The notes under the pieces: model-generated | What the model saw: the letters and a program-made list of their open reading frames with translations, nothing else | Told to the model about the DNA's origin: nothing | Databases searched by the model: none | Assembly: GCA_964590885.1 (NCBI GenBank) | Contig: CAZPWW010000014.1 | Coordinates: 23,400-55,399, forward strand | Direction of reading: 5' to 3' | From: an uncultured Phycisphaeraceae bacterium | Lineage (GTDB): Bacteria; Planctomycetota; Phycisphaerae; Phycisphaerales; UBA1924 | DNA: 32,000 bases | Made by a program: the position numbers and the translations under genes | Shown here: piece after piece, positions 2,472 through 19,575 of the stretch | Layout of the letters: every line of letters begins with the position of its first letter | Position numbering within the stretch: position 1 is the first letter of the stretch

Positions 2472-2498
2472 GCGTGTGCGGGTGAGCGTGCCTGCGGG

Positions 2499-3062
2499 TC
2501 AGGAGCGGAGATCGAGCGACGACACCACCTGCTGCGTGGTGTGGGTGTTGGGGCGTGCGTAGACACCGGTGTGCGAGAGGGTGCGTGCCACCTGGGCCAT
2601 CATGCCCTTCATGTGCGCGAGCAGGGCCTCGCTGGCCATGCGGATGGTGCGGTTCTGCTCCTGCACGGCCTCGCCCACCTCACGCAGCCGCGCGGCCGCC
2701 TGCAGCACTCGCCCGCGTGCGGGCTCGGCAGCCGCGGCGACCAGGGCTGAGAGCGGAGCGGTGGGGGGCAGGTTCTGGGGCGCGGCCACGCGAGCGGCCC
2801 ACGCACCGCGGCGTGCATCGAGCGGGGCCAGCCGCGCCGCCGCCTCGCGCTGCGCATCGGCACAGCGCTCAACCGCGGCGCGGTCGGCGCTGCTGAGGGC
2901 GGCCCGGTGGGCGCGGGCGATGCGCGCCAGGCCGTCGTACTCGCTCTGCAACGTGCTCAGAATCGCCTCGATCTCGGCGAGGTCGGCGGGCGTGGGAGCC
3001 AGCGCCGCGGGTTTGCGCTGGGCTGCGGGCCGGGGCGCAGGTTGGAGAGCGGGTGCGGGCAT
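2499..3062 (-). CDS. FlgN-like flagellar export chaperone (putative)
   Basis: 187 aa, helical and Ala/Arg/Leu/Glu-rich (LSTLQSEYDGLARIARAHRAALSSADRAAVERCADAQREAAARL). It sits immediately upstream of flgK, where flgN usually lies. The call rests on position and composition, not a strict motif. Confidence 0.5.
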   Translation of the reverse strand: MPAPALQPAPRPAAQRKPAALAPTPADLAEIEAILSTLQSEYDGLARIARAHRAALSSADRAAVERCADAQREAAARLAPLDARRGAWAARVAAPQNLPPTAPLSALVAAAAEPARGRVLQAAARLREVGEAVQEQNRTIRMASEALLAHMKGMMAQVARTLSHTGVYARPNTHTTQQVVSSLDLRS

Positions 3063-3067
3063 GATTG

Positions 3068-3574
3068 CTAGCGGGCCACGGGTGCGGCAAGTGCGGGCGG
3101 GATAAGCGGGCTCTGCGGGGCGACCGGGGCGACACGCTCGCGCGTGCGCAGCAGGTCGCGTGCCACCCTGTCTACCAGCGGGAAGTCGCCGGCCCGCGCG
3201 ATCTGGCGGGCCACGTGCTGATCCATGAGCGTGCCAAACTGCTTCTCGGCCGGGCCGGGGGCAAAGGGCGGAGCGGCTCGGTTGCCGTCGCGGAGCAACT
3301 TGAGCACGGGGGCGACGAACGCGACCGACACGAAGTCTTCGGCGGCGCGGCGCGCGGCCTCGGCGCGGCCGCCGACATCGGCCCTTGTGCCGATCTCGCT
3401 CCGGTTGCCGGATGCCCCCGCCAGCACATCGCTGAAGCTCCCTTGCCGCTCTTGCAGAACCGTGGCCGTCCCGGTGCGGTGGTCGGCCAGCCGCTCCGCG
3501 GCGGCGTGGAAGACGCCCGTGCCGCGCTCGGCGGCGGGTCGGGCATGGGTGGGGATGAAGCCGGTGGAGGTCAT
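3068..3574 (-). CDS. flgJ: flagellar rod-binding protein (FlgJ N-terminal-type, no muramidase domain)
   Basis: 168 aa. It contains AAEDFVSVAFVAPVLKLLRD...KQFGTLMDQHVARQIARAGDFPLVDRVARDL, which matches the Rod_binding pattern (AA.FE..f...mlk.m....f..m.d...a..ia..g.gl). It follows flgI. No glycoside-hydrolase domain is present. Confidence 0.7.
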   Translation of the reverse strand: MTSTGFIPTHARPAAERGTGVFHAAAERLADHRTGTATVLQERQGSFSDVLAGASGNRSEIGTRADVGGRAEAARRAAEDFVSVAFVAPVLKLLRDGNRAAPPFAPGPAEKQFGTLMDQHVARQIARAGDFPLVDRVARDLLRTRERVAPVAPQSPLIPPALAAPVAR

Positions 3575-3575
3575 G

Positions 3576-4739
3576 TCATTCCACGATCAGGCGGGCGTGC
3601 AGGCGTCCGGCGCGGTGCAGTTGGGTGAGGATGGCGATCTGGTCGTCGATGGCCACGTCGAGTTGGCGCATGGCGGCGAGCAGGTCCTGGATGCGGCCGC
3701 GCTCGCTGGAGCGGCCGGTGGTCTGCAGCGCGACGGCTTTGGAGACGGTGGTGCGAGGGTTCTGGGGGCTGGGTTCCACGGGGGGACGGGTGGTGGAGAC
3801 GATCAGGTCCTTGTGCGATACGGCGGCGGGGGAGATCTCGACATTGCCTGTAACGACGATGCTGCCGGTGCGGCTGTTGACGATGACCTGGGCGGGCAGG
3901 CGGAGCAGGCTGGGGCTGAAACTGGCCGAGAGCACGCGCGAGAGGAACTTGGCCCTGTTGGCCCGCTCGATCGGCGGCACGAGCACGCGCACGCTGGCAT
4001 CGTCGATGGCGGTGGCGATGACGCCCGTGGCCCCCTGTGGCTCGAGATCCGATGGGTCGGCTTCCGGGGCGAGGCTGTTGATGGTGTCAGCGATCTGGTC
4101 GGTGACGGTCCAGGCCCGGAAGTGGGGGTGCACGATGAGCGTGAAGGCGTCGCCCGTAAGGGGCATGAGCACGTCTTTCACCATGCGGGCGCCGGCCCGC
4201 ACGCGCCCGACGGTGGGCGTGGACGGGTCTTCGAGCACGATCGGGCCCGAGGCCATGGCGTAGAGCGTGTCGTCGCCGGAGAAGGGGCCGGTGAGCGGGG
4301 CCAGCAGCAGGCGGCCCCCCGCCAGGCTGCTCGCGGAGTGGGAGACGGAGACGAAAACATCGAGTTCGTCGTCGCGCCGCGCCCCCTCGCGGGGAATGAT
4401 GCACTCGATCATCACCAGGGCCGCGCTCTTGGCCTTGGCGAGTTCGCGGGGGTCGGCCAGTTCGTTGCCGTTGTTCTTGTAGACCTGCGCGAGCGGGCGG
4501 GCCAGCACCAGGTCTTGCCCGCTGTCTCCGGTGCCCTTGAGGCCGATGACCAGGCCGAAGCCGCGCAGGACCGATTCGCCCTGCCCTTCGATGCGGACCA
4601 TGTCTTGCAGGCTGGTGATGCCCCCGCCGGCGGCCGGCGCGGCCTCTTGAGCCCCGGCCGTCGCGGCGAGCGCAACAAACGCCGCCAACCCGGCGACGAG
4701 CGGCGCGAGCCTTGCGCGACATGAACGGCGCGGCGACAT
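3576..4739 (-). CDS. flgI: flagellar P-ring protein FlgI
   Basis: 387 aa. It has a signal peptide (LAPLVAGLAAFVALAATAGAQE) followed by ITSLQDMVRIEGQGESVLRGFGLVIGLKGTGDS, the classic FlgI N-terminal block. The C-terminus reads LLAAMRQLDVAIDDQIAILTQLHRAGRLHARLIVE. Confidence 0.93.
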   Translation of the reverse strand: MSPRRSCRARLAPLVAGLAAFVALAATAGAQEAAPAAGGGITSLQDMVRIEGQGESVLRGFGLVIGLKGTGDSGQDLVLARPLAQVYKNNGNELADPRELAKAKSAALVMIECIIPREGARRDDELDVFVSVSHSASSLAGGRLLLAPLTGPFSGDDTLYAMASGPIVLEDPSTPTVGRVRAGARMVKDVLMPLTGDAFTLIVHPHFRAWTVTDQIADTINSLAPEADPSDLEPQGATGVIATAIDDASVRVLVPPIERANRAKFLSRVLSASFSPSLLRLPAQVIVNSRTGSIVVTGNVEISPAAVSHKDLIVSTTRPPVEPSPQNPRTTVSKAVALQTTGRSSERGRIQDLLAAMRQLDVAIDDQIAILTQLHRAGRLHARLIVE

Positions 4740-4753
4740 CCGGCGAACTGCCC

Positions 4754-4768
4754 GCGAAGCGTGTGCCA
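4754..4768 (-). promoter_or_regulatory. candidate sigma-54 (-24/-12) promoter in the flgH-flgI spacer
   Basis: The minus strand reads TGGCAC-ACGCT-TCGC. GG-N10-GC is intact with exact spacing. The -12 element is TCGC rather than TTGC. The flgI ATG (4739) lies 15 nt after the GC, so the transcript would be nearly leaderless. Confidence 0.3.
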
Positions 4769-4796
4769 GCGGCCGGGCCGCGTGCGCCCGCGCCGG

Positions 4797-5579
4797 TCAG
4801 AAGTTGAAGATGGCTTCGAGTACCTGCGGGATAAAGCCCTTCTCGCTGGCATCGCGCACCTGCCCGGTGTTCTCGACGCGGATGACCAGGTTGGCCAACT
4901 GGTTGGACAGCACGGTGCCCTGCACGGTCACGTCTTTGGGATCGCACAGGCCCGCCACCACCAGGGTCTTGCTCTCGGAATCCTGCTGGATGGTCTCCTT
5001 GGCTTCGACCACGAGGTGCCCGTTGGGCTTCACGTCGATCACCAGGCCGGAGATGCGGGCGGTGAGCCGGTCCTTGCGCTCGAGTTTGCCGTCGCCTTTG
5101 TAGTCTTGATTGGCCGTGAGACCCAGGTTGGGGGCGTCGCCGGTCACGCCGTCGCGGAGCGTGGCGTTGTAAAGCAGTTGCTTCAGGCTGGGGAACTGGG
5201 CAAGTTCGGCCTTGGTATCGTACTTGGTCTTGGTCTCCAGTTTCGATTCTGCCGAACTGAGCGAGGTTTCGTTGATGATGATCTCGATCTTGTCGTGCTT
5301 CTTGTACACCGTCGGAGGGGGCGGCTTCACGCCCGCCAGAGCGACGGCCGAGAAGCCCGGGCCGCCACCAGCGGCACCCGGCGGCGGCGAGGCGAACGCG
5401 GCCCCCGGGTCGCCGGCGGACGCGGACGGCGGGTTGACGGGCGCGCCGGGAGCGGGCGGAAGCGCCGCGGCCGGCACGGCCTGGGCGGGTCTTTGAAACA
5501 GGCTTTGGGACCGGGCCGGAAGCGCGGCCAGCAGGACCACCGCACAGGCGAACGCTGCGAGCGTGCGAACGCGGATCAT
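4797..5579 (-). CDS. flgH: flagellar L-ring protein FlgH
   Basis: The track ORF is 4797..5666. I trimmed it to the internal ATG (5579) that starts the signal peptide MIRVRTLAAFACAVVLLAAL and forms an ATGA overlap with the flgA stop. The conserved FlgH core is KKHDKIEIIINETS...NQDYKGDGKLERKDRLTARISGLVIDVKPNGHLVVEAKETIQ...LVVAGLCDPKDV. Confidence 0.88.
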   Translation of the reverse strand: MIRVRTLAAFACAVVLLAALPARSQSLFQRPAQAVPAAALPPAPGAPVNPPSASAGDPGAAFASPPPGAAGGGPGFSAVALAGVKPPPPTVYKKHDKIEIIINETSLSSAESKLETKTKYDTKAELAQFPSLKQLLYNATLRDGVTGDAPNLGLTANQDYKGDGKLERKDRLTARISGLVIDVKPNGHLVVEAKETIQQDSESKTLVVAGLCDPKDVTVQGTVLSNQLANLVIRVENTGQVRDASEKGFIPQVLEAIFNF

Positions 5580-6706
5580 CGCGGAACCCTCCGGGTGGCG
5601 GGAGTACGGTGCGAGCCGGCGGCGGCCTGCGGGGCGGGTCCGGCATCGAACCCGGCGTGGTGGCACTCGAGGACGGCGGTGCCGCGCCCGCTCAGTCGGG
5701 CTTTGAATGTCTTACGCGACCCTTCGAGTTGCAGGGCCACCTCGTCGCCGTCGCGTCCGGCTTCCAGCGCCCGGGCCTTGGCCTTCATGGCGACGGTGCC
5801 CGAGAGCACGTGCACCCAGACGCTCTCGCCCCGCTTCACCACCACGGGCGAGCGTGTGTCGTCGTGATCGATGGCCCGGGCCGGGTCGAGCGCGTGCCGG
5901 GCCGTTTGCCCTGCCAACTGCCCGGGGGCGGGCGGGACCGTCGCGGCGGGCGACATCCAGACCTCTTCGGTGCTCAGGTTGGCGGCGTCCAGTTCGGACC
6001 CCGCGGCGACCGGCGCAGCCACCCGCGCGGCGGCGCGGCGCACCAGCACGTCGACGGTTATGGTGCGTGCCGCGGCCACGCGTGCACCCTCGTAAATGTC
6101 CACGCGGATGGCCACGCGTCCGGAGACGCTGGCGGAGCCGGGAGACGCTTCCACGCGCTCGCCGGCGGCGAGGGGGCGGTCGAGGAAGGCCGTGTCGTCG
6201 CGCCCGCCGCGGAAGCAGATCCGCACGTCGGCGGGCGGCAGAGCGTACAGGTCTGCGAGGCGGGCGGCCACGAGAGCACGCATGGACCCGGGTGGCAGCG
6301 CATCCACTGGTACAAACGCGCGCCGGTCACCCGCCGGGCCCGCGTGCCGCGGTGCCATTATCGGGTCGGGAGCGCTCAGGTCGCAACGGGTTCCGCTCAC
6401 CGCCACGCGGCCCCAGTTCACGCCGGCAGCTTCGAGCGCGCCGCGTACCTGGGGCAGGTCGATCGATGCACGCCCGGCGCCGTGTCCCGGCGTGGCGGTG
6501 TCCAGCAAGCGCACGGCGCCAAGCCGCTCGCTGTCGGGGCCGGTGAGGGTGGCCACGTCTTGCAGGAGCACCGGCAAGCCCGGGGCGATGGTCGCCTGCG
6601 GGCGCAGCGCCACCGTGGTCTGGGCGCGGGCCGGGCCGGCTGCCAGCGCGAGTGCAAGGCCCAGCATGGCGAACGCGATACGCATGATCTGCCCTGCCAA
6701 GAGCAC
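5576..6706 (-). CDS. flgA: flagellar basal-body P-ring formation chaperone FlgA (long form)
   Basis: It has a signal peptide (MRIAFAMLGLALALAAGPARAQ; the true start may be the ATG at 6685). The C-terminal FlgA chaperone block is VVVKRGESVWVHVLSGTVAMKAKARALEAGRDGDEVALQLEGSRKTFKARLSGRGTAV. It lies between flgG and flgH. Confidence 0.8.
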   Translation of the reverse strand: MLLAGQIMRIAFAMLGLALALAAGPARAQTTVALRPQATIAPGLPVLLQDVATLTGPDSERLGAVRLLDTATPGHGAGRASIDLPQVRGALEAAGVNWGRVAVSGTRCDLSAPDPIMAPRHAGPAGDRRAFVPVDALPPGSMRALVAARLADLYALPPADVRICFRGGRDDTAFLDRPLAAGERVEASPGSASVSGRVAIRVDIYEGARVAAARTITVDVLVRRAAARVAAPVAAGSELDAANLSTEEVWMSPAATVPPAPGQLAGQTARHALDPARAIDHDDTRSPVVVKRGESVWVHVLSGTVAMKAKARALEAGRDGDEVALQLEGSRKTFKARLSGRGTAVLECHHAGFDAGPAPQAAAGSHRTPATRRVPR

Positions 6707-6708
6707 GC

Positions 6709-7521
6709 TTACCGCGTGCGGAGGTTGGCGACGTTCTGCAGCGTCTGGTCGGCGGCCCGGATGGTGTTGGAGTTCATCTCGAAGGCCCGCTGGGTCTTGA
6801 TGAGGTCGATGAGTTCGCGGGTGGGATCAACGTTGGAACTCTCGAGGAAACTGCCCACGAGTGTGCCGCGCGTGTCGGTGCCGGGGTTGCCGATGAGTGG
6901 GGGGCCGCTGGCCGCGCTCTCGACGTACAGGTTTTCTCCGACCTGCTTGAGGCCGCTCGGGTTGATGAATGCGGCGGTCTGGATCTGGCCGATCTCGACC
7001 GGCTCGACCTGGCCGGGCTGGTTGACGAACACGCGGCCGTCGGGCCGGATGGATACGGGGCGGATGGCATCGGCGGGCACGGTGATGTTCGGGTCGAGGC
7101 GGCGGCCCTGGTCGTTGGCGAGCACGATCTCGCCGTCAGAGTTGAGTGCGAAGGCGCCGGCACGGGTGTAGGCGAAACCCCCGCCCAGGGCGTCTTCGGT
7201 CTGCACGCGGAAGAAGCCGGTGCCCTCGATCGCCACATCCAGATCGCGTCCGGTGCTGATGGGCGAGCCCTGGGCGAAATCGAGGTGGGTGCCGCTGACA
7301 CGCACGCCCAGGCCAACGTACAGACCGATGGGCCGCTGGTCGCTGTTCACGTTCTCGGTGCCGGGCTGAGCCCGCTCAATGTAGAGCAGGTCCTGAAAGT
7401 TCGCGCGGCTGGCCTTGAAGCCGGGCGTGTTCACGTTGGCAAGGTTGTTGGCGGTTACGTCGAGGGCCGTGTTCAGGGCCGAGAGGCCGGAGGCGGCCGA
7501 TTGCAGTGCGATGATCGCCAT
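6709..7521 (-). CDS. flgG: flagellar distal rod protein FlgG
   Basis: 270 aa. MAIIALQSAASGLSALNTALDVTANNLANVNTPGFKASRANFQDLLY is the canonical rod N-terminus. The C-terminus is GSFLESSNVDPTRELIDLIKTQRAFEMNSNTIRAADQTLQ. Confidence 0.94.
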   Translation of the reverse strand: MAIIALQSAASGLSALNTALDVTANNLANVNTPGFKASRANFQDLLYIERAQPGTENVNSDQRPIGLYVGLGVRVSGTHLDFAQGSPISTGRDLDVAIEGTGFFRVQTEDALGGGFAYTRAGAFALNSDGEIVLANDQGRRLDPNITVPADAIRPVSIRPDGRVFVNQPGQVEPVEIGQIQTAAFINPSGLKQVGENLYVESAASGPPLIGNPGTDTRGTLVGSFLESSNVDPTRELIDLIKTQRAFEMNSNTIRAADQTLQNVANLRTR

Positions 7522-7548
7522 GGTGCTCCACCTCGGTTTCGTATCCGA

Positions 7549-8325
7549 TCAGGCCACGCGCCCCATGGCCACGGCCCGCTCCATCAGTTGGTCGTACAGC
7601 GACACCATCCGCAGGTTGGACTGCACGGCCCGTTCGGCGCTCGAGAGATCGAGCATGGTGCGGACGGCGTCCACCGCCGAGCGTTCGACGCTGCCTTGGG
7701 CGACGGCCGCCGCGGCCGGGCGCCGGGCCGCCATGATTCTCGCGTCGGCCCGATACAGCCCCGAGCCCTCCGGGCGGAGGCGGGCGGGCTCGGCCACGGC
7801 GGCCACCTGCAGGGTCGCCACCGCCGCACCGTTCTGGCGGATGGTGCCCGAACCGTCGATGCGGACCTGCGCGCCCGGGTCCAGGGTGATCGGCTTGTTG
7901 GCGGTGTCGAGCACGGGCAGGCCGCTGCCGGCGTGCACCAGGCGCCCGCGAGAATCTGTGGTGAGACGGCCGTCGCGAGTCAGGCGCAGGGACTCGGAGT
8001 CGGCCCCCTGTCCCGACTGCAGCACGAGAAAACCCTGCCCCTGCAGCGCGACGTCGAGGGGCCGGCCGGTGGTTTCGAGGGCGCCCTGCGGCAAAGAGAG
8101 CCGGTTGGGCATGAGCATGGCGCCCGAGCCCAGCCGTTCCATCATGGTGCTGGAGGGGAGGGAAAAGAGGCCGTCTTCGATGCGGGCCGCGCTGCGTTCG
8201 CGCGTTGCCGGTGTCATGGGTTTGTAGCCCGTGGTTTCCGCATTGGCCAGGTTGCCCGCCAGCGCGTCCATGCGGTGGAGGTTCGTGAGGGCGCCCGACG
8301 CGGAGAGGTACAGGCCGTAGTTCAC
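7549..8325 (-). CDS. flgF: flagellar proximal rod protein FlgF
   Basis: 258 aa with a GTG start preceded by GGAGG. The N-terminus is MNYGLYLSASGALTNLHRMDALAGNLANAETTGYKP. The C-terminus is QGSVERSAVDAVRTMLDLSSAERAVQSNLRMVSLYDQLM. It lies immediately upstream of flgG. Confidence 0.9.
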   Translation of the reverse strand: MNYGLYLSASGALTNLHRMDALAGNLANAETTGYKPMTPATRERSAARIEDGLFSLPSSTMMERLGSGAMLMPNRLSLPQGALETTGRPLDVALQGQGFLVLQSGQGADSESLRLTRDGRLTTDSRGRLVHAGSGLPVLDTANKPITLDPGAQVRIDGSGTIRQNGAAVATLQVAAVAEPARLRPEGSGLYRADARIMAARRPAAAAVAQGSVERSAVDAVRTMLDLSSAERAVQSNLRMVSLYDQLMERAVAMGRVA

Positions 8326-8558
8326 GCGCGCCTCCTGCCAGCGCTGTGGCGCGCGTGTCGGGCGTTGGCCGGGGTGCCGCCGCCTCCGGCCAGCATGGCG
8401 TGCAGGGCCACGGCGAGATAGGCCCGGCGCACCACCAGCCGGCCGACGTCGGCGTAGGGCGCTCGGGCGGCCTCACCGGCGGGTGCACGATCTGCGCGGC
8501 ATGAAGCCGGCGGTGAAAGGACCATGCGTGGCGGTATCAACCCGCGTGCCAGCCACAC
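8322..8558 (-). CDS. candidate small basic protein upstream of flgF (may be non-coding)
   Basis: This is a track ORF. Its last ~45 codons have almost uniformly G/C third positions (CCC TAC GCC GAC GTC GGC CGG CTG GTG GTG CGC ...). Its TGA overlaps the flgF GTG (GTGA, 8322-8325). No recognisable domain. An internal ATG at 8525 is a plausible start. Confidence 0.25.
   Translation of the reverse strand: MWLARGLIPPRMVLSPPASCRADRAPAGEAARAPYADVGRLVVRRAYLAVALHAMLAGGGGTPANARHARHSAGRRRA
8535..8552 (-). promoter_or_regulatory. sigma-54-like -24/-12 element upstream of the flgF operon (imperfect -12)
   Basis: The minus strand reads CTGGCACG-CGGG-TTGATA. The -24 element TGGCACG is perfect and the spacing is correct. 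The -12 element is TTGA instead of TTGC, so the conserved GC is GA. Confidence 0.3.
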
Positions 8559-8722
8559 GGGTGCGGCGGGCGAGCGGGGTTCGCTGCGTGGCTTTCGACG
8601 TCTCCGCGCGATGCAGGCTTGAGTCGGCGGGCGGGCCGATGCCGCCGGCCGCGCAACAGCCGCGCTCAGCGCTCAGAGGATGCGCACGAACCACCCGGGG
8701 TGTCACCCTGCCGTGAGGCAGG

Positions 8723-8971
8723 TCAGTTGTTCCGGCTGGAGCAGGCCCCGGCACCCTTCCCGCACGGGCAGCAACCGCCGCCCCCTCCGCCCCCCCAGGC
8801 CCCGGCGCCGGCCGCTGCGCCGGCTGAGCCCTTGGCGGCGAAGGCTGAAAGACGGCGCGTAAAGGTACGTCCCTTGCCGTCGGGGTCGGGCACGGGCTTG
8901 TCCGCGTCAGCCATCGGGCGCAGGAGTTCGATGACGGCGCCGTCGGGTGCTTCGTATTCGTAGATCGGCAT
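8723..8971 (-). CDS. FmdB-family-like small protein with the zinc-ribbon cysteines lost and a Gly-run/Cys-rich tail
   Basis: 82 aa. The MPIYEYEAPDGAVIELLRPM....PDPDGKGRTFTRRLS region aligns position-for-position with the canonical paralog at 23205 (MPTYEYRCKACKHEFELFQSM....CPSCGKKRVERLI). All four ribbon Cys are replaced. The tail is AWGGGGGGGCCPCGKGAGACSSRNN. Codon third positions are consistent with coding. Confidence 0.6.
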   Translation of the reverse strand: MPIYEYEAPDGAVIELLRPMADADKPVPDPDGKGRTFTRRLSAFAAKGSAGAAAGAGAWGGGGGGGCCPCGKGAGACSSRNN

Positions 8972-9043
8972 GTGCGAGGGTAGCCGAGGGTGATGCGCCC
9001 GAGCGGGCGGGCGCGATGCCGGCCCCGGGTAGCGGGCAGCGGA

Positions 9044-9541
9044 TCAGGCACCGATGGCCCGGCGGGCCAGCATCTCAAAGGCCTGCTCCACCCCGTCGCC
9101 GCTCTTGGCCGAGCCCTCGTACACGCTCCAGCCGCGGGCCTTCATGGCCTCGATGTCGGCGGCCGTGATCTCCCACTGGGCCTTCAGGTCGGTCTTGTTC
9201 ACCACGGCGATGAAGGGCAGCCCGCCGATCTCGGCCTTCACGCGCTCCTCGATGCCGATGGCGACATCGAGCGTGGCCCGGCGGGTCCCGTCGAGCACGA
9301 GCATGAAGCCCGCAGCGCCCTTGATGTGCACCGTCTGCATCCACTGGAACTCGTCCTCACCCATCTGGTCCCAGATGACGAGGGTGACATCCTGGTCGCC
9401 AACCTTGAGTTGGCGTTTCTTGATCGTGACGCCCACCGTGGTCTGGTACTTGTCGGAGAAGATGCTGGAGACGTAGCGCTGCACCAGGCTGGTCTTGCCC
9501 ACGGCGAAGGCGCCCAGCATGTTCACTTTCTTCTGGATCAT
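9044..9541 (-). CDS. Ras/Rab-like small GTPase (prokaryotic Ras superfamily)
   Basis: 165 aa. G1 is GAFAVGKT. The switch I region is YQTTVGV. G3 is WDQMGEDEF. G4 is NKTD. G5 is SAK. It aligns along its whole length with Rab-type GTPases (compare ..YISTIGVDFK...IWDTAGQERF...NKCD...SAK). Its ATG overlaps the stop of the upstream OmpA-domain gene (ATGA, 9538-9541). Confidence 0.88.
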   Translation of the reverse strand: MIQKKVNMLGAFAVGKTSLVQRYVSSIFSDKYQTTVGVTIKKRQLKVGDQDVTLVIWDQMGEDEFQWMQTVHIKGAAGFMLVLDGTRRATLDVAIGIEERVKAEIGGLPFIAVVNKTDLKAQWEITAADIEAMKARGWSVYEGSAKSGDGVEQAFEMLARRAIGA

Positions 9542-11355
9542 GGTTTGGCCCTCCCGGGATCAAGGAACAGCGGCTGGTCGAAGAACAGCACACGCAGCGA
9601 CACGCGCCGGTTCTGCTCGCGGTCTTTGTCGGTGGCTTCCTTGGCGACCTTGGGCTGGGCGGGGCCCACGCCCACCGCGGCCAGTTCGCGCGTGGCCACA
9701 CCGCGGGCCACCAGCAGGGAGATCACCCGGTCGGCCCGGTCGCGCGAGAGGCGCACGTTGCGCTCCTCCTGCCCGGAGGAATCGGTATGGCCGATGACCT
9801 GGACCTGGAAGTCGATACCCGCGGACCGGGCGGCCTCGGTGAGTCGGAGCACCGCGACGGCCATGTCGCCCACCACCGCCACCTGCGACTCGGCCAGGTC
9901 GCTGGAGGCGAAGGGGAAGCGGGCCGAGAGCGACTCCACGCGGTCGCGCAGCGCGGCAAGTTGCCGCTGGTCCGTGTCGATCAGGCCGCGGTCGTCATAG
10001 GCGCTCACGCCGGGGACGGTCGTCGCGAGCCTGCGGGCGGCGGCGACCCAGGCGTGGTCGGCGGTTCCGGTGGCGGTGAGCGTTGCGCCGTTCAGAGCGA
10101 GCGCAACGCTCCCCTTGGCCGAGGCGGGCCGCAGAGTTTGCACGGCGCGGCGTTCGACCAAGCGGGCATCGAGCGAGAAGTAGGGCTCGAGTTGGGTGGC
10201 GATGCGGGCCCGGTCGCGCTCGGGCTTGGTCTGAAAGAACGACTCCGGCGTGGGGGCCAGAGCATCTCGCAAGCCGATCACGAGCGGGCGGCCGTCGGGG
10301 TCGGTGCCCACGCGGGTGACCACGTACCCGGGCACGCCCTTGCTCCAATCGAGAAACTCGTTCAGCAGGGCCCGCAGCGACCACGCCCGCACGGCCCACC
10401 ACGCCAGCAGCGGCAGCAGAATCAGCAGGGCGAGCCAGAAGAAGGGGAAGGAGCGCTTGCGGGGTGCACGCTGCGTCTCTTCACGCAGGCAGGCTTCAAG
10501 GATGGGCCGCGTGGTGATGAACGGCGCGGCGTCGCCCTGAAACTCGGCGAGGTGGGCGGCGTGCTCGGTGCTGATCCGCTCGAAGGCCTCTTGCAGCGTG
10601 GCCCGAAAGGCGTGCGCCGGCGTGCCGCGGATGGCGGCGGCGAGGATGGCGGCGGGGCCCTGCTCGACCCAGCAGTTCAGGTCCCCGATGCGGAAAGAGT
10701 CGAGGCCGGAGCCTTCCTGCACGCCGAACGAGTCTTTGGCGAAGTCGCGGATGGCCGTGAGCATGCCGCTCACCATGTCGGCGTCCTGGGCCTGAATGTG
10801 GTCGGCCGCCACGTGCTGCAGCACCAGGCCTGCTTCACGATGGACGAGGAAGACCTGCTCCACCCGGTACACCAGCGAGCGCTTGAGACGCACGGCACCG
10901 AAACTCTGCCCGCTGCGCCACGACTCGATCAGGCAACTCAGGCCCTCGCGCGAGAAGGGGCTGGCGAGCGTCTCGTTGAAGCGCTGCACGAAGCCCTGCA
11001 GCGCATCGCTGATGCTCTTGCGGATCGCAGGGCCCATCACGGGGCTGATGGCATCCACCAGCGGCTTCGGATTCTTCTGCACGCTGGTGCGGATGCTCGA
11101 CTCGATGGTGGGGGCCAGGGCCCGCGCGATGCGGTCGTCTTTGCTCGTGCGCAGGGTGATCGCGTCGGGCAGCGTCGCGGCCACGTTCTGCACGTGCCAT
11201 GCCGTGTCGGCGAGTTTCTTGTCCAGCGTGTTGAGGCGGGCGGTTTCGGGCCCCACCAGCACGGTGCGGACGGCCGCGAGGTCCGCCGCGTGGTCGCGCG
11301 CCGGTTCCGGGGTGTCGGGGTCGAGTGAGCCGGGGTGGGGAGCGGGTCTGTCCAT
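9538..11355 (-). CDS. bitopic membrane protein: cytoplasmic Roadblock/LC7-like region, one TM helix, periplasmic BON-like segments and a C-terminal OmpA/MotB peptidoglycan-binding domain
   Basis: The track ORF is 9538..12477 (979 aa). It was trimmed to the in-frame ATG at 11355 (MDRPAPHPGS...), because the upstream part overlaps the convincing GAF-PP2C gene on the other strand. 605 aa. The TM helix is RKRSFPFFWLALLILLPLLAWWAVRAW (aa ~300-325). The OmpA motif is VIGHTDSSGQEERNVRLSRDRADRVISLLVARGV...NRRVSLRV. Confidence 0.8.
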   Translation of the reverse strand: MDRPAPHPGSLDPDTPEPARDHAADLAAVRTVLVGPETARLNTLDKKLADTAWHVQNVAATLPDAITLRTSKDDRIARALAPTIESSIRTSVQKNPKPLVDAISPVMGPAIRKSISDALQGFVQRFNETLASPFSREGLSCLIESWRSGQSFGAVRLKRSLVYRVEQVFLVHREAGLVLQHVAADHIQAQDADMVSGMLTAIRDFAKDSFGVQEGSGLDSFRIGDLNCWVEQGPAAILAAAIRGTPAHAFRATLQEAFERISTEHAAHLAEFQGDAAPFITTRPILEACLREETQRAPRKRSFPFFWLALLILLPLLAWWAVRAWSLRALLNEFLDWSKGVPGYVVTRVGTDPDGRPLVIGLRDALAPTPESFFQTKPERDRARIATQLEPYFSLDARLVERRAVQTLRPASAKGSVALALNGATLTATGTADHAWVAAARRLATTVPGVSAYDDRGLIDTDQRQLAALRDRVESLSARFPFASSDLAESQVAVVGDMAVAVLRLTEAARSAGIDFQVQVIGHTDSSGQEERNVRLSRDRADRVISLLVARGVATRELAAVGVGPAQPKVAKEATDKDREQNRRVSLRVLFFDQPLFLDPGRAKP

Positions 11356-11376
11356 GCCGTAGGCGGAGTGTAAGGG

Positions 11377-12780
11377 ATGGGGCCAGCCCGCTGTGCGCGC
11401 GGCCCGCCTGTGTGTATGCTGGCGCGGATGGCCGACCCCACTCCGCTCCCGTCGCCTCCGGACCCCGTGAACGCCCCGGCGAGCACGTTGGTTGACCCCG
11501 CCGCGCTGCTGCGGGTGCTGGCGGTGCTGGAGAAGTTGAACGCGAGCAACGACCTGCGGGTGGTGCTGGGGTTGATCATCGATTCGATGCGCGACTGCCT
11601 GCACGCGGAGCGGGCCAGCGTGTTTCAGTTCGACCCCAAGAGCCAGGAGTTGTTCATCACCACGGCCCACGGCGCGACGAACATCCGGTTCCCGATCACG
11701 CGCGGCATCGCGGGCGAGGCGGGCCGCACACGTCAGATCATCAACGTCAAGGACGCCTGGGAGGACCCGCGCTTCAACCCGGAGTTTGACAAGAAGAGCG
11801 GGTTCCGCACGCGGGGCATGCTGACCATTCCGCTGATTTCGGCGGATGGCACACTCGAGGGGGTGGCCCAGGCATTGAACAAGAACCCCCAACTCGGCGC
11901 GCACTTTGACGCCAGCGACGAGGTGCTGGCCAAGGCCCTGGCAAGCCAGGCAGCGATTGCGCTGCGGCGGGCCACGCTGATCGAGGCCGAGATCCGCAAG
12001 AAGAAGATCGAGGGCGACCTGGCCCTCGCCAAGACGATTCAGAGCGCGGCCCTGCCCAAGAGCATCCCTGAGGTGCCGGGCTACTCGCTGGCGGCACAGA
12101 CCATCCCTGCCGAGGAGACGGGGGGCGACACGTTTGACCTGATCAACCTCGCCGACCTGCCCGCGGTGCCGGCCGATGCGGGGCAGGCGCGGGCCATGAA
12201 GAACGGCCTTGTGTTCATGCTGGCCGATGCCACCGGCCACGGCATCGGCCCGGCGATCAGCGTGACGCAGGCCCGCAGCATGTTGCGGATGGGGGCCCGA
12301 TTGGGCGGAGATTTGAGCCGCGTGGTGGCCCACCTGAACGCCCAGTTGTGCGAAGACCTGCCCGCGGGCCGGTTCATCACCGCGTTCATCGGCGTGCTCG
12401 ACTCGCAGGCCCACACCGTCACCTACGAGGCGCCAGGCCAGGCGCCGCTGCTGATCGTGCGGGCCGACGGCAAGCACGAGGAGTACGACGCCAACGCCAT
12501 GCCCATGGGCATCGACGCGGAGATGCAGCCGGATGCCGTGAAGCCCTTCGCGCTCGGGCCGGGCGACGTGTTCGTGCTCGCCAGCGACGGCTACATCGAG
12601 GCCATGGACCCCGACAACGGCCAGTTCGGCACCGAGGCGACGGTGAACGCCGTGCGCGAGAAACTCGCGGGCACCGCAGGCGAGATGCTGGCCAACCTGA
12701 ACCGGCGCGTGGGCGAATTTGCGCGTGGCCGACCCTTCGGCGACGATCAGACGGCGATCATCATCAAGCGAAACCCGTAA
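11377..12780 (+). CDS. GAF domain-containing PP2C-type (SpoIIE/RsbU family) serine phosphatase
   Basis: The N-terminal GAF domain is LEKLNASNDLRVVLGLIIDSMRDCLHAERASVFQFD...RGIAGEAGRTRQIINVKDAWEDPRFNPEFDKKSGFRTRGMLTIPL. The SpoIIE/PP2C core is AKTIQSAALP...GGDTFDLI...FMLADATGHGIGPAISV...FITAFIGVLD...VFVLASDGYIEA...FGDDQTAIIIKR. The start is uncertain, with in-frame ATGs at 11377, 11416 and 11428. Confidence 0.88.
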   Translation: MGPARCARGPPVCMLARMADPTPLPSPPDPVNAPASTLVDPAALLRVLAVLEKLNASNDLRVVLGLIIDSMRDCLHAERASVFQFDPKSQELFITTAHGATNIRFPITRGIAGEAGRTRQIINVKDAWEDPRFNPEFDKKSGFRTRGMLTIPLISADGTLEGVAQALNKNPQLGAHFDASDEVLAKALASQAAIALRRATLIEAEIRKKKIEGDLALAKTIQSAALPKSIPEVPGYSLAAQTIPAEETGGDTFDLINLADLPAVPADAGQARAMKNGLVFMLADATGHGIGPAISVTQARSMLRMGARLGGDLSRVVAHLNAQLCEDLPAGRFITAFIGVLDSQAHTVTYEAPGQAPLLIVRADGKHEEYDANAMPMGIDAEMQPDAVKPFALGPGDVFVLASDGYIEAMDPDNGQFGTEATVNAVREKLAGTAGEMLANLNRRVGEFARGRPFGDDQTAIIIKRNP

Positions 12781-12828: not shown

Positions 12829-14049
12829 TCAGCGAGCCCCGCCCTTGGCCTTGAGCGCCCGGATCCGCTCGCCCAGCGAGAGCAACTTGATGAACCCGCC
12901 CGCGTCCTTCTGGCTGTAGATCTCCTCCCCCTCGAAGGAGACCATCTTCTCGGCGTACAACGAGTGAGGGCTGGTGCGCTGGATGGCCGTAGCCACGCCC
13001 TTGTAGAGGCGCACGGTGATCTCGCCGGTGAGCGGGCGGGCGATCGACTCGGCCGCGGCCCACAGGGCCTCGCGCAGGGGTGTGAACCAGCGGCCGTCGT
13101 AAACCAGTTCGGCAAACAGCAGGCCCAGATGCTCGCGGTAGTGGCGGGTCTCGCGGTCAAGGACGAGTTCTTCCAGCGCCCGCAGGGCCTCGACGATCAC
13201 GGTGCCGCCGGGTGTTTCGTAGAGGCCGCGGGACTTCATGCCTACGCGCCGGTTCTCGACCAGATCCACCCGCCCCACGCCGTGGGCGCCCGCGATCCCA
13301 TTCAGTTGCAGGATCAGTTCGTGCCCCGGTAGGGCCTTCCCGTTCAGCGTCCGGGGCCGGCCCTTCTCGAAGCCCACCCGCACGGTCTCGGCCTTGTCCG
13401 CAGCCTTGGCCGGATCGGTGGTCAGCATCCACGCATCATCGGGCGGGGCGTTGGCCGGGTCTTCGATCGTGCCGCCCTCGTGCGAGATGTGCCAGAGGTT
13501 CCGGTCGCGCGAGTAGATCTTGGTCGCGCTGGCCGACGTGGGAATGTCCCGCTGCTTCAGGTAATCAAGCATCGCCAGCCGGCCCGAGAGTTTCCAGTTG
13601 TCCATCCGCCACGGCGCGATGATCTCCAGTTCCGGGGCCAGCGCGGCGTATGCGCTCTCGAAGCGCACCTGGTCGTTGCCCTTGCCCGTGCAGCCGTGGG
13701 CCAGGGCCGTGCAGCCGGTCTTGAGGGCCACCTCCACCTGCCCGCGGGCCAGCACGGGGCGGGCCATGGCCGTGCCCAGCAAGTAACGTCCCTCGTACAT
13801 GGCCCCGGCGATGATCGTGGGGAAGACAAACTCCTCGGCGAAGGCGTGCTTCAGGTCCACCACGTGGCACGATGCCGCGCCCGAGTCTTTGGCCTTCTTC
13901 TCGACGCCCGTGAGTTCGTCGACACCCTGGCCGACGTCGCCCACAACGCACACGACCTCGCAGTGCAGGTTCTCGCGCAGCCAGGGCACGATGCACGACG
14001 TGTCGAGTCCTCCTGAGTAGGCGAGCGCGACTTTCTTGGTTGTGGGCAT
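12829..14049 (-). CDS. argG: argininosuccinate synthase
   Basis: The track ORF 12829..14493 was trimmed to the ATG at 14049. MPTTKKVALAYSGGLDTSCIVPWL carries the AYSGGLDTS ATP-binding signature. Other blocks are ...ALAHGCTGKGNDQVRFE... and ...SRDRNLWHISHEGG. 406 aa, the typical length. Confidence 0.95.
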   Translation of the reverse strand: MPTTKKVALAYSGGLDTSCIVPWLRENLHCEVVCVVGDVGQGVDELTGVEKKAKDSGAASCHVVDLKHAFAEEFVFPTIIAGAMYEGRYLLGTAMARPVLARGQVEVALKTGCTALAHGCTGKGNDQVRFESAYAALAPELEIIAPWRMDNWKLSGRLAMLDYLKQRDIPTSASATKIYSRDRNLWHISHEGGTIEDPANAPPDDAWMLTTDPAKAADKAETVRVGFEKGRPRTLNGKALPGHELILQLNGIAGAHGVGRVDLVENRRVGMKSRGLYETPGGTVIVEALRALEELVLDRETRHYREHLGLLFAELVYDGRWFTPLREALWAAAESIARPLTGEITVRLYKGVATAIQRTSPHSLYAEKMVSFEGEEIYSQKDAGGFIKLLSLGERIRALKAKGGAR

Positions 14050-14155
14050 GGGGCTCGGTCCTTTGCGGCGGAGCGGACTCGGTCGAACGGTGGGCGGGCG
14101 GAGAGCGTGCCGGCGCGGCCCGGCCCGGCATGGTTGGTCGGCCGAGGTCTGTGTT

Positions 14156-15217
14156 CTACACGGCGCGGCGTGCGCCCGCACCGGGCGGAGGGGCCGGGGT
14201 TCGGGCCGCTGGCGAGGCGGCGGGGGTCGGCTGGAGGCAGCCGGTGTCGGTGGGGCGGGCGCCCTGGGCAGCCCGGGCCGCCACGGTGTGCACAAGCAGT
14301 GCGTTCTGCGCGTGCAGGCGGTTCTCAGCCTGCTCGTACACGAGCGAGGCCGATGAGTCGATGACCTCGTCGGCCACCTCTTCGCCGCGGTGGGCGGGCA
14401 GGCAGTGCATGAAGACCGCATCGGGCGCTGCCCGGGCCATGAGGGCGGCATCCACGCGATAGGGTACGAAGGCACGCTCTCGGGCCTCGGCATCGTCCTT
14501 CTGGTGCATGGAGACCCACGTGTCGGTGTAGACGGCGCGGCAGCCGGCCACGTCGGCCGGTTCGTGTGAGAGCGTGAGGGAGCCCCCGCTGTCCTCGGCG
14601 AAGCCCGCGGCGATGCGGGCCTGGGCCGCGTCGGGTCTGTACCCCTTGGGGGTGATCACACGCACGTGAGCCCCTGCGCGGCAAGCGACGTGCATAAGCG
14701 AAACGCAGACGTTGTTGCCGTCGCCCACATAGGCGATGGGCAGGCCGGCGACACCGCCGAAGTGCTCGACCAGCGTGAGCACGTCGGCCAGTGCTTGACA
14801 GGGGTGGTGGGCATCGGAGAGTGCGTTGATCACCGGCACGCGGGCGTGCTCGGCGAGCGCTTCAATGGTCCGCTGGCTGTAGGTGCGGCAGACGATGCCG
14901 TGCACCCAGCGTTCGAGGTTGCGGGCGTAGTCCTTGATCGATTCGCGCTGGCCGATGCGTTCGGCAGAGTGGTCGTAGTAGATGGCCTGGCCGCCCAGAC
15001 GGTGAACGCCCACCTCAAAGGTGAGGCGCGTGCGCAGGGAGGGCTTCTCGAAGAGCAGAACCACCGACAGGCCGCGCAGCGTATCGGCGTACGCGCCGGG
15101 GTTGGCCTTCACATCGGCGGCCGTGCGCAGCAGCGTGGCCACGTCGCCCCCGGTGGGGGTGGCGGCCGAGACCAGGTCTTTGACGGTGAGCGGGCCCGGG
15201 GGGGCGGGGAAGATCAT
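14156..15217 (-). CDS. argF: ornithine carbamoyltransferase-family transcarbamylase (motif variants, C-terminal low-complexity extension)
   Basis: The track ORF was trimmed to the ATG at 15217 (MIFPAPPGPLTVKDL). Motifs present are FEKPSLRTRLTFE (canonical STRTR), HPCQALADVLT, DTWVSMHQ (canonical SMG) and HCLPAHRGEEV. It lies between argR and argG. Confidence 0.82.
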   Translation of the reverse strand: MIFPAPPGPLTVKDLVSAATPTGGDVATLLRTAADVKANPGAYADTLRGLSVVLLFEKPSLRTRLTFEVGVHRLGGQAIYYDHSAERIGQRESIKDYARNLERWVHGIVCRTYSQRTIEALAEHARVPVINALSDAHHPCQALADVLTLVEHFGGVAGLPIAYVGDGNNVCVSLMHVACRAGAHVRVITPKGYRPDAAQARIAAGFAEDSGGSLTLSHEPADVAGCRAVYTDTWVSMHQKDDAEARERAFVPYRVDAALMARAAPDAVFMHCLPAHRGEEVADEVIDSSASLVYEQAENRLHAQNALLVHTVAARAAQGARPTDTGCLQPTPAASPAARTPAPPPGAGARRAV

Positions 15218-15321
15218 GGTGGGTTCCGGTGCGGGAGCGGGCAGTGAGTGCGGGGGTGTGTCAGCGAGCGTGCACAGGCCGGGCGCGCCGATGGCCGCCC
15301 CGGGCAAAGGCGACGTGCGGC

Positions 15322-15774
15322 TCAGGGGCGCTGCACGAGTTGGCGGCACAGGCGCACCAACGAGCGGGCCCGCGCGGGGGAGTTCACGGCCACGAAGATC
15401 GTGTCGTCGCCCGCGATCGTGCCCGTCACCCCGGTGATGCCGGAGCGATCGAACTCGCTGGCGAGCGGAGAGGCGTGGCCAGGGCGGGTACGGAAGACCA
15501 CCAGGCTGCCCGCCGCGGCGGCCGAGAGCATGTAGAGTTTCACGGCCATCTCGATCTGCGCGTTCCCCGTGCCCAGGTCGCCGCCGCCCTGATTCAGCAC
15601 GTAGCCCGAGGGTCCCTTGAAGACGCTGAGGTCTCGCAGGTCGCGCGAGAGCGTGGCCTGCGTCACGGCCACTCCCCGGGCTTCGAGCAGCGCGGCCAGA
15701 CGTTCCTGATTTGGCACGGTCTGCTGCTGCAGCACATCGAGGATCAGTTGGCGGCGGCGGGCCTTCGCGCTCAT
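15322..15774 (-). CDS. argR: arginine repressor ArgR
   Basis: MSAKARRRQLILDVLQQQTVPNQERLAALLEARGVAVTQATLSRDLRDLSVFKGP is the winged-helix N-domain (compare AhrC ...VTQATVSRDIKEL). The C-terminal oligomerisation domain is ...GTIAGDDTIFVAV. The start was set at the second ATG (15774) by alignment logic. Confidence 0.88.
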   Translation of the reverse strand: MSAKARRRQLILDVLQQQTVPNQERLAALLEARGVAVTQATLSRDLRDLSVFKGPSGYVLNQGGGDLGTGNAQIEMAVKLYMLSAAAAGSLVVFRTRPGHASPLASEFDRSGITGVTGTIAGDDTIFVAVNSPARARSLVRLCRQLVQRP

Positions 15775-15779
15775 GTATA

Positions 15780-15808
15780 AGTATGCACACTCGGAATACA
15801 CACGTCAA
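15780..15808 (-). promoter_or_regulatory. putative sigma-70-type promoter of argR-argF-argG (leaderless) with an overlapping ARG-box-like palindrome
   Basis: The minus strand reads TTGACG-N17-CATACT, then 5 nt, then the ATG. This places the transcription start at or next to the start codon. The AT-rich imperfect palindrome TGTATA-AG-TATGCA (15774-15787) overlaps the -10 element and the ATG. It is one of the few AT-rich islands in the window. Confidence 0.4.
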
Positions 15809-16099: not shown

Positions 16100-16114
16100 T
16101 GGCACTTGGGTTGC
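16100..16114 (+). promoter_or_regulatory. sigma-54 (RpoN) -24/-12 promoter upstream of groEL1
   Basis: TGGCAC-TTGGG-TTGC is an exact match to the TGGCAC-N5-TTGC core (GG-N10-GC). It lies ~105 nt upstream of the groEL1 ATG, in a 445-bp non-coding gap. Confidence 0.55.
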
Positions 16115-16219
16115 CCTGCGATGGGCGGCGGTGGTTCCGCCGGCTTACCGAACAAACCGCGTCCGGCTCAGGGCCGGGCCGGCTCGCTTCCTTGGTCTTG
16201 CGAAACGGAGACGATCCCG

Positions 16220-17977
<1,758 letters not shown>

Positions 17978-18279: not shown

Positions 18280-18315
18280 TCCTCCCTCTCCGGTGCGCCC
18301 CCACGGCCCTTGCTC

Positions 18316-19044
18316 ATGCAGCCACTCTTCGACAGCCTGAAGCAGCTCTTCACCGACATCCCCGGGTTCCTCACGGCCTTCGTGGGGGATCACGGCCCCT
18401 GGGTGTACGGCCTGCTCTTCGCCATCATCTTCGCGGAGACGGGCCTGGTGCTGCTGCCCTTCCTGCCGGGGGACTCGCTGCTCTTCACAGTCGGCGCGCT
18501 CAGCGTGCCCGACAAGGAGACCGGCAAGGCGGCGTTCAACCTGTGGCTGGTGTCGGGGGTGCTCATCCTGGCGGCCATCATCGGCGACGCGGTGAACTAC
18601 CACATAGGCAAGTACGTCGGGCCGCGCGTGTTCAACAAGAACCCGACGCCGGACCACACCCCCACGTTCATCGAGCGGGCTCTGAACCGGCAGCACCTGG
18701 ACCGGGCCCACGCCTTCTTCGAGAAGTACGGGGGCAAGGCGGTCATCCTGGGCCGCTTCGTGCCGATCGTGCGCACGTTCGTGCCCTTCGTGGCCGGTGC
18801 CGGGGCCATGAACTACACGCGCTTCGCGGTCTACAACGTGGCGGGCGCGTTCCTGTGGGTGGGCGTCTGCTGCGGGGCGGGCGTGCTGTTCGGGAACATC
18901 CCGTTTGTCAAGAAGCACTTCGAGTTGGTCGTCATCGGCATCATCGTCGTGTCGGTGCTTCCGGTCGTCTACGAGGTCCTGGTCGCGCGGGCCGAGGCCA
19001 GGCGCCTGGCCGCAGCGGCGGCCGTGGCGGCCGGGAAGTCGTGA
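18316..19044 (+). CDS. dedA: DedA family inner-membrane protein
   Basis: FAETGLVLLPFLPGDSLLFTVGAL and GKAVILGRFVPIVRTFVPFVAGAGAMNYTRFAVYNVAGAFLWV are the DedA/SNARE-associated signature blocks. ATG at 18316 (the track starts at TTG 18310). Confidence 0.9.
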   Translation: MQPLFDSLKQLFTDIPGFLTAFVGDHGPWVYGLLFAIIFAETGLVLLPFLPGDSLLFTVGALSVPDKETGKAAFNLWLVSGVLILAAIIGDAVNYHIGKYVGPRVFNKNPTPDHTPTFIERALNRQHLDRAHAFFEKYGGKAVILGRFVPIVRTFVPFVAGAGAMNYTRFAVYNVAGAFLWVGVCCGAGVLFGNIPFVKKHFELVVIGIIVVSVLPVVYEVLVARAEARRLAAAAAVAAGKS

Positions 19045-19411: not shown

Positions 19412-19569
19412 GGTCAAAGGGCCAAACGGTCGAATCACCACATGGCCAAATGATGCCGGTGCCAGTCATGTCCTCGGGTTCGGTCGGCCGGCGTGTGCCG
19501 GCCTAGAAGTGCGGTGTTGTCCAGTTCCGATTTGGCCATTTGGCCATTTCACCCTTTGGCGATTTGGAT
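19412..19569 (+). repeat. 158-nt imperfect palindrome: two inverted arrays of five tandem 8-nt units (GGCCAAAT / ATTTGGCC type) flanking a GC hairpin, in the groES-groEL2 spacer
   Basis: The left arm at 19412-19451 is GGTCAAAG GGCCAAAC GGTCGAAT CACCACAT GGCCAAAT. The central hairpin at 19486-19503 is GGCCGGC-gtgt-GCCGGCC. The right arm at 19530-19569 is ATTTGGCC ATTTGGCC ATTTCACC CTTTGGCG ATTTGGAT. The right arm ends 6 nt before the groEL2 ATG. Confidence 0.85.
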
Positions 19570-19575
19570 CCTCCC

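Follow-up and report, generated by a model that had tools for sequence, protein, structure and literature searches.

Must a bacterial small GTPase that carries Phe, Ala and Glu where Ras carries Gly12, Gly13 and Gln61 be a crippled or permanently loaded switch? The question is raised by a gene at 9044..9541 (-) of a 32,000-nucleotide stretch of DNA from an uncultured Phycisphaeraceae bacterium (hereafter the window; positions 23,400 to 55,399 of contig CAZPWW010000014.1). A sequence-only reading of this locus had held that the three substitutions leave either a slow or locked switch or a protein that depends on a dedicated partner, the obvious candidate being the product of the translationally coupled upstream gene. 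We suggest instead that the protein is a typical representative of Group 1 Rup, a family of bacterial Ras/Rab-like GTPases, that F12/A13/E62 is the conserved active-site make-up of that family, and that the protein works as a switch set by a membrane-bound partner with a longin domain. We put the probability of this reading at roughly 0.6.

The gene, rup, is real, because its product matches Pfam Ras (E 4.7e-30, residues 5-162; Roc and Arf also match), its third-position GC is 0.93 and it has thousands of homologues (5531 proteins at E<=1e-3 in a word-index search). It is the single Rup gene found in a search of the source genome. Its product (P0001) is a single-domain Ras-superfamily G protein of 165 amino acids, against the 150-240 amino acids by which Group 1 is delimited, and all of the G1-G5 motifs can be read in the translation. 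The P-loop, whose numbering coincides with that of Ras, is G10-A11-F12-A13-V14-G15-K16-T17 (9491..9514 (-), with the F12 codon TTC at 9506-9508), and the switch I Thr is T35. Switch II reads W57-D58-Q-M-G61-E62-D63-E64 (D58-E64 at 9350..9370 (-)), with the E62 codon GAG, at 9356-9358, in the Ras Q61 position. The G4 motif of guanine specificity, N115-K-T-D118, lies at 9188..9199 (-), and the G5 motif, S144-A-K146, at 9104..9112 (-).

The solved structures nearest to Rup are those of Rab23 (PDB 8yim, E 5e-26, phmmer), a Thorarchaeota Rab, Rab21 and Rab7. The phmmer alignment with Rab23 is essentially ungapped, and gap-free across the P-loop and switch II, placing GAFAVGKT of Rup opposite GNGAVGKS of Rab23 and WDQMGEDEF opposite WDTAGQEEF. 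Since the GxxxxGK[ST] and DxxG anchors leave no freedom and this alignment is essentially ungapped, the register is fixed. The translation and the Rab23 alignment thus bear out Phe, Ala and Glu at the G12, G13 and Q61 equivalents, and a shift of register that would restore the canonical Gly and Gln, named beforehand as the finding that would overturn the assignment, is ruled out by the Rab23 alignment together with the 144-row family alignment described next.

This family alignment comprises the best 120 of the 5531 homologues and the Rup genes from 24 genome loci. Position 12 is Phe in 138 of the 144 rows and Tyr in four, A13 is present in 128, and position 62 is Glu in 132, Asp in nine and Gln in a single sequence; D63 follows in 141. 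Every row has G10, G15 and K16 in the P-loop, Y32 and T35 in switch I, W57, D58 and G61 in switch II, N115, K116 and D118 in G4 and S144 and A145 in G5, where K146 is found in 130/144. Guanine binding thus looks preserved, as the intact NKTD and SAK motifs had led the sequence-only reading to expect. The 144 homologues span at least 10 phyla, and loci bearing the signature were found in Cyanobacteria, Acidobacteriota, Desulfobacterota, Bacteroidota, Gammaproteobacteria, Verrucomicrobiota, Latescibacterota, Deinococcota and Planctomycetota. Judged from this alignment, F12/A13/E62 is a conserved family signature, far above chance, and no one-off of the present protein. With the residues that bind GTP and Mg invariant and the unusual residues nearly so, the signature appears to be held by purifying selection rather than to reflect decay, and its conservation alongside those residues argues for a working GTP/GDP switch and not a decayed one. 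The substitutions are hence not special to this protein; residues that look oncogenic from the standpoint of Ras are normal for Group 1 Rup proteins and need no special explanation.

Nor does the chemistry of the three positions imply a crippled enzyme, as had been argued by extension from Ras. Ala is ordinary at the G13 position, where Rab23 has it in the same phmmer alignment. Glu is the one substitution at position 61 of Ras that has been reported to raise intrinsic hydrolysis, the Q61E protein hydrolyzing GTP above the wild-type rate (PMC2987813, PMC10515638), and so a crippled enzyme does not follow from Glu; a near-invariant acidic residue at position 62 of Rup argues for function over decay. 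The residue at position 12, which had been taken as a bar to hydrolysis stimulated by a GTPase-activating protein (GAP), has a bulky counterpart in Rheb, whose Arg15 occupies the Gly12 position and which TSC2, a GAP working without an arginine finger, nonetheless turns off; Rap has Thr61 in place of Gln61, and RapGAP supplies an Asn (PMC2265111). With these precedents, unusual residues at positions 12 and 61 need not stop the GTPase cycle. Rup shares such residues with Rap, which has no usable cis-Gln, and with Rheb, which has the bulky residue, and for both of these a cycle driven by a GAP without an arginine finger is known. It differs from them in its conserved acidic residue, where they have Thr or Gln, and in that no RapGAP or TSC2-like domain is found here.

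A further precedent comes from EF-Tu, where the P-loop residue Val20 acts as a hydrophobic gate and holds back the catalytic His until the protein is activated (PMC2666028); aligning the GxxxxGK motifs places Val20 at the position of Phe12 of Rup. Given the raised intrinsic hydrolysis of Ras Q61E, Glu62 may be catalytic in cis, and Gln66, fairly conserved in the family (106/144), is a further candidate residue. Any side chain at position 12 of Ras blocks the arginine finger of RasGAP. Phe12 would likewise fill the entry site of the finger, and the Ras-type route of arginine finger plus cis-Gln is therefore excluded for the whole family.

The same residues could also be those of a locked switch of the kind seen in Rnd, RhoH and kappaB-Ras, always GTP-bound and controlled through its expression, membrane sequestration or degradation. 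Such a protein might well have a bulky side chain in place of G12 and no Gln at the 61 position, and changes of this sort do block GAP action in Ras. We regard this as improbable, however. The E62-D63 pair is nearly invariant when a functionless residue would be expected to drift (a comparison made within the Rup family), T35, D58 and G61 are invariant, the hyperactivity of Ras Q61E and the compatibility of the bulky Rheb residue with a cycle point the other way, and the protein has, as described below, a conserved partner with a longin platform. Of the two possibilities offered at the outset, the locked switch is thus unlikely in view of the conserved E62-D63 and of partners that resemble regulators, and the dedicated partner gains from the linkage and the fold of the neighboring protein.

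The Rup family was defined by Wuichet and Søgaard-Andersen (Genome Biol Evol 2014/15; PMC4316618), in a genomic study that reports no experiments. Group 1 was there described as having a G3 motif with the Asp but without the Gln, and as being encoded next to three kinds of gene: one for a coiled-coil protein, one for a protein with an unknown domain, a transmembrane helix and an OmpA domain, and one for an output protein (GGDEF/EAL or histidine kinase) with an invariant Gln in its N-terminal region, from which the authors proposed a trans-glutamine GAP (PMC4316618). The text of that study is silent on the near-invariant P-loop Phe and on the longin and PAS-like folds of the two unknown domains (PMC4316618), and it was the only paper found when the literature was searched for experiments on Rup proteins and for a connection of longin with OmpA domains in bacteria. 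The protein encoded in the window agrees with this description in being a single-domain Ras-like G protein with the G3 Asp and no Gln (D58-Q-M-G61-E62), in its taxonomic spread, in its neighbor with an unknown domain, a transmembrane helix and an OmpA domain, and in the presence elsewhere in the genome of a coiled-coil protein and of invariant-Gln output proteins. Its closest homologues include proteins of Nostocales, Nitrospira and Acidobacteria that are located in canonical cassettes. The difference is one of arrangement: only the OmpA/longin-Rup pair is linked here, and the other three parts lie on three other contigs.

The linked partner, with a gene at 9538..11355 (-), is a protein of 605 amino acids composed of a helical N-terminal region, a longin domain, one transmembrane helix, a periplasmic linker and an OmpA-type peptidoglycan-binding domain; its start was set from the part of the extended open reading frame (ORF), residues 375-971, that a profile matched. 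Its stop and the rup start overlap in an ATGA at 9538..9541 (-), an arrangement of translational coupling, and a Shine-Dalgarno sequence, GGGAGGG, lies at 9549-9555 (-), seven bases upstream of the overlap. The OmpA-like domain, residues 480-583 (9607..9918 (-)), matches PF00691 in Pfam at E 4.5e-12 and gives partial matches to OmpA, Pal and MotB-type models in NCBIfam. The single transmembrane helix, residues ~304-329 (10369..10446 (-)), is seen both as a helix in the structural model and as a hydrophobic stretch in the translation, where the basic stretch RAPRKRS precedes it; by the positive-inside rule the protein would have its N-terminus inside and its C-terminus outside. Identity over the N-terminal 330 residues is 45-52% across phyla, and a search with this region gave 2880 matches.

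We modeled these 330 residues with AlphaFold2 (AF2) from a 41-row alignment (model m4d19da0e8cb8; mean predicted local distance difference test score, pLDDT, 76). In the cytoplasmic domain, residues ~160-296 (10468..10878 (-)), means over 10-residue blocks mostly lie at 87-96, with dips to 72-78 and 58 around residues 180-220, and the topology is strand-strand-helix-strand-strand-strand-helix-helix. In VIA-align the domain superposes on the longin domain of Sec22b (Z 13.1, rmsd 2.8 A, 123 residues), and the top structural matches, from Foldseek and from a search independent of Foldseek, are all longin or roadblock domains. Further matches are to VAMP7, CPLANE, AP sigma, TRAPP subunits, Mon1-Ccz1 (Z ~10), the roadblocks of Rag/Ragulator, and MglB (Z 9.1). 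The region has no Pfam match and no meaningful sequence match in the PDB, and it is at the level of fold only that the modeled cytoplasmic part of the partner is identified as a longin domain.

The pairing with Rup is widespread. The adjacent gene for a transmembrane/OmpA protein, here the ORF at 9538-11355, is the neighbor of rup in 21 of the 24 loci, and the four-nucleotide overlap recurs in at least nine of them, from several phyla (L001, L004, L007, L010, L013, L015, L018, L022 and L023). A dedicated partner is therefore likely, with the longin/transmembrane/OmpA protein as the one partner that stays linked. The proposal that the coupled upstream protein is this partner has accordingly gained from the recurrence of the overlap and from the longin fold; the published trans-glutamine candidate is a different protein, encoded in the source genome on other contigs.

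The eukaryotic systems that come to mind are the pairs of a Rab with a longin-type guanine nucleotide exchange factor (GEF): Rab7 with Mon1-Ccz1, Rab1 with TRAPP and Rab23 with CPLANE. The nearest solved relatives of Rup include Rab23, Rab7 and Rab21, and it is with the longin domains of the very GEFs named here that the domain of its partner can be superposed. The two sides also differ, in that Rabs have Ser/Gly and Gln where Rup has Phe and Glu, that Rup lacks a C-terminal Cys for prenylation (its sequence ends in RRAIGA and is free of Cys throughout), and that the bacterial longin domain sits in a bitopic protein anchored to peptidoglycan, the likeness being known from sequence and fold only. 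Rup is not a true Rab, given E62 in place of the Gln of DTAGQE and the absence of a prenylatable Cys, a feature that also sets archaeal Rab-like proteins apart from Rabs (PMC4915359).

Among bacterial systems, MglA/MglB and the actinobacterial conservons (CvnA-D) likewise combine a small GTPase with a regulator of the roadblock/longin superfamily, and the conservons also include a histidine-kinase-like protein. MglA is diagnosed by a G3 motif without the Asp, an intrinsic Arg finger and coupling to MglB (PMC4316618); it also uses a cis-Gln, whereas Rup has D58, has Thr rather than Arg as the residue before T35, and has no Gln. The partner differs from MglB in lacking a Pfam Robl_LC7 match and in its longin rather than roadblock topology. 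An assignment to the MglA type was rejected for the G3 Asp D58, the Thr before T35 and the lack of Robl_LC7 matches in the neighbors.

If the partner holds Rup at the membrane, what does Rup act on? The candidates in the source genome are two proteins with PAS-like N-terminal domains. P0242 is a stand-alone protein encoded on contig C24 (E 5e-23, and 2.8e-47 in a later search), with a gene for an M1 peptidase on one side and genes for a cell-wall amidase and a PBP4-type protein on the other. P0393 is a histidine kinase of 385 amino acids with the second type of PAS-like N-terminal domain, encoded on contig C7 (E 1e-19). In the latter region (L035:566-3414, on contig C7 of the source genome, G000) its gene overlaps an upstream REC-Hpt gene by four nucleotides and is followed by a gene for an ECF-type sigma factor. 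We note that this arrangement looks like the hybrid kinase-REC-Hpt output of acidobacterial cassettes (L010) divided between separate genes. Whole-genome profile searches with both types of PAS-like domain gave matches on contigs C24 and C7 only.

Folded from a 55-row alignment (pLDDT 96), P0242 has a five-stranded PAS core, a D-x-T junction and then a 40-residue C-terminal helix. Its best structural match is the PAS domain of ThkA (Z 10.7, rmsd 1.9 A, 82 residues), and all 50 of the top structural matches listed are PAS domains, although the domain has no Pfam PAS match and no meaningful sequence match in the PDB. Gln116 lies 13 residues past the D-x-T junction, with which the last PAS strand ends, and about three turns into the long helix of the model. 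In three alignments, with 10, 11 and 55 sequences, it is either invariant or kept in at least 90% of the rows; the equivalent Gln is invariant in the second type of output domain. The model thus identifies the published invariant-Gln domain as PAS-like, with the Gln in its C-terminal helix. At 50% identity, representatives of this domain number at least 1000; in nearly all of them it either precedes an output, whose length varies widely, or stands by itself.

These observations bear directly on the published hypothesis (PMC4316618), in which the Gln of the output N-terminal domain is inserted into the active site of Rup in place of the missing cis-Gln and the output acts as its GAP, with P0242 and the kinase P0393 as the candidates here. 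The conservation of Gln116 and of its equivalent in the second domain type speaks for such a mechanism, as does a large domain family whose members nearly always sit at the N-terminal side of a signaling output, and proteins of the RabGAP and RapGAP types do supply catalytic residues in trans. In the model of P0242, however, the Gln sits within the long helix C-terminal to the PAS core, at the place of a coiled-coil signaling helix, rather than on a finger that protrudes. For structural reasons, the linker helices of PAS kinases often have conserved polar residues. The PAS-like gene is, moreover, unlinked from rup in the source genome, and Glu62 is conserved although a mechanism acting purely in trans would have no need of it. 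We therefore consider a trans-acting Gln unlikely.

How are the parts of this system arranged here and elsewhere? We compared the 24 genome loci by ORF clustering, profile searches and Pfam. In most of them the order is canonical: a coiled-coil protein (~200 amino acids) with the motif DKIRDILFGxQMR, the OmpA/longin protein (~600), Rup (~165) and an output, the outputs of the canonical loci being histidine kinases and hybrid kinases. The window and its near relatives L001 and L002, which are 91-94% identical, have the OmpA-Rup pair only. No coiled-coil gene adjoins rup in any of these three, nor an invariant-Gln output gene in the window; both components are present in the source genome and unlinked, the coiled-coil homologue being at G000:C21:8901-9440 (E 2e-49). 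The OmpA/longin and coiled-coil proteins carry similar short N-terminal motifs, ELRxLLLGPE in the former and DKIRDILFGxQMR in the latter, and this similarity hints at a common binding site or at a mutual interaction of the two.

In a sample of 121 genomes of the same class, Rup, the longin N-terminal domain and the PAS-like domain occur in the same two, the source genome and G102, and the coiled-coil protein occurs in these two with one weaker match elsewhere. G102, a genome from the same taxonomic order, has a canonical linked cassette, with an adenylate/guanylate cyclase as output (L034, G102:C35:118000-137900). This pattern of co-occurrence fits one system that is kept together even when unlinked, and the only real peculiarity of the present copy is that its cassette is scattered over the genome. 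The OmpA/longin protein of G102 is lengthened by several internal repeats of a periplasmic segment of ~65 residues, and an OmpA/longin homologue of 915 amino acids carries a Pfam annotation for a BON domain.

For the working switch that we favor, we propose that the bitopic partner would anchor to peptidoglycan outside, present its longin platform inside and recruit Rup to the inner membrane, where the platform would set the nucleotide state of Rup upon a cue from the envelope or the cell wall. In Rab GEFs such as Mon1-Ccz1, TRAPP and CPLANE, it is longin domains that form the catalytic platform, and we therefore favor an exchange factor or recruitment platform, as for Rabs, as the role of the longin domain here. 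Rup-GTP would then bind the PAS-like N-terminal domains of the outputs and modulate the kinase through its signaling helix. Hydrolysis would probably proceed in cis through the carboxylate of the conserved Glu62, behind a gate formed by Phe12 and the invariant Tyr32, which a partner would open.

Several points weigh against this proposal. Longin and roadblock domains can also be passive scaffolds or, as in MglB, FLCN and GATOR1, GAPs, and a domain of this fold may just as well act as a GAP. In three of the 24 loci (L016, L017 and L019) a signature-bearing Rup stands alone or with an output gene, and the fetched flanks, 3.7 to 10 kb upstream, hold no longin/OmpA or coiled-coil gene; the pairing of Rup with the longin protein is therefore not obligatory in cis. 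Co-occurrence at the level of the class rests on two lineages only. The Phe12/Tyr32 gate and the cis role of Glu62 rest on homology alone and, as the literature searched yielded no biochemical data on any Group 1 Rup member, every mechanistic step is inferred.

A bolder proposal would take Phe12 and Glu62 not for defects that the family tolerates but for a distinct catalytic solution of a Ras-fold switch, in which a cis-carboxylate general base lies behind an aromatic Phe12/Tyr32 gate opened by a membrane-anchored longin domain, and would hold the bacterial longin-Rup pair to be related to the eukaryotic longin-GEF/Rab modules. We think it doubtful that all of this holds; were it true, the pairing of longin domains with GTPases would predate eukaryotes. 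Among bacterial proteins, the widespread Group 1 Rup proteins stand nearest to the Ras, Rab and Rho GTPases of eukaryotes, and their near-invariant Phe12 and Glu62 offer a natural test of how far the catalytic center of Ras can be rebuilt. While the family, its missing G3 Gln, the OmpA neighbor and the idea of a trans-acting Gln were already known, the longin fold, the PAS-like fold, the scattered cassette and the argument from Q61E are added here. A longin fold in the constant partner and PAS-like folds in the outputs give testable regulator and effector roles to a system so far described from gene neighborhoods only.

The position of the pair in the window suggests one more reading, namely that Rup in this lineage controls the assembly of flagella or the function of their stators. 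The OmpA/longin gene and rup are followed, on the same strand, by an 82-amino-acid Zn-ribbon ORF with a Gly- and Cys-rich tail (8723-8971 (-), 72 nucleotides downstream of rup, with a weak PF09723 match) and then by the flagellar rod and ring genes flgF-G-A-H-I-K (720-8325 (-), flgF being 7549-8325), and the partner has weak NCBIfam matches to the C-terminal domains of MotB and MotD. The likeness to MotB is nevertheless confined to the generic OmpA domain and lies far under the family cut-offs, the cassette is also present where flagellar genes are absent from the lineage or the surroundings, as in Nostocales cyanobacteria, and the arrangement is shared only by the near-identical relatives L001 and L002. 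A non-coding gap of ~400 nucleotides upstream of flgF, with a sigma-54-like site at 8537-8551 (-) that has one mismatch, also separates the two groups, and flgF-G-A-H-I-K probably have their own promoter, apart from that of the OmpA/longin-rup pair; a promoter and terminator scan of 8200-11600 gave nothing usable. We hold a flagellar role to be very improbable.

On the other side of the pair, a GAF-PP2C (SpoIIE-type) phosphatase gene at 11377-12780 (+) is divergent from the OmpA/longin gene. It was considered as an output of the cassette and rejected, as its product lacks the PAS-like Rup-associated domain. The start of its longest ORF (putative, as the first start codon after a stop) is 21 nucleotides from the OmpA/longin start, and with so short a divergent spacing one start codon, or the promoter of one of the two, must lie inside a gene. 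Farther on, at 12829-15801 (-), lie ORFs that, from their translations only, we take to encode argininosuccinate synthase, ornithine carbamoyltransferase and ArgR. An exact sigma-54 -24/-12 consensus, TGGCAC-N5-TTGC, is found at 16100-16114 (+), ~30 nucleotides upstream of a Cpn60/GroEL-family gene at 16145-17977. A VTT/DedA-domain gene (18280-19044) separates this gene from a second Cpn60 paralogue, at 19507-21189.

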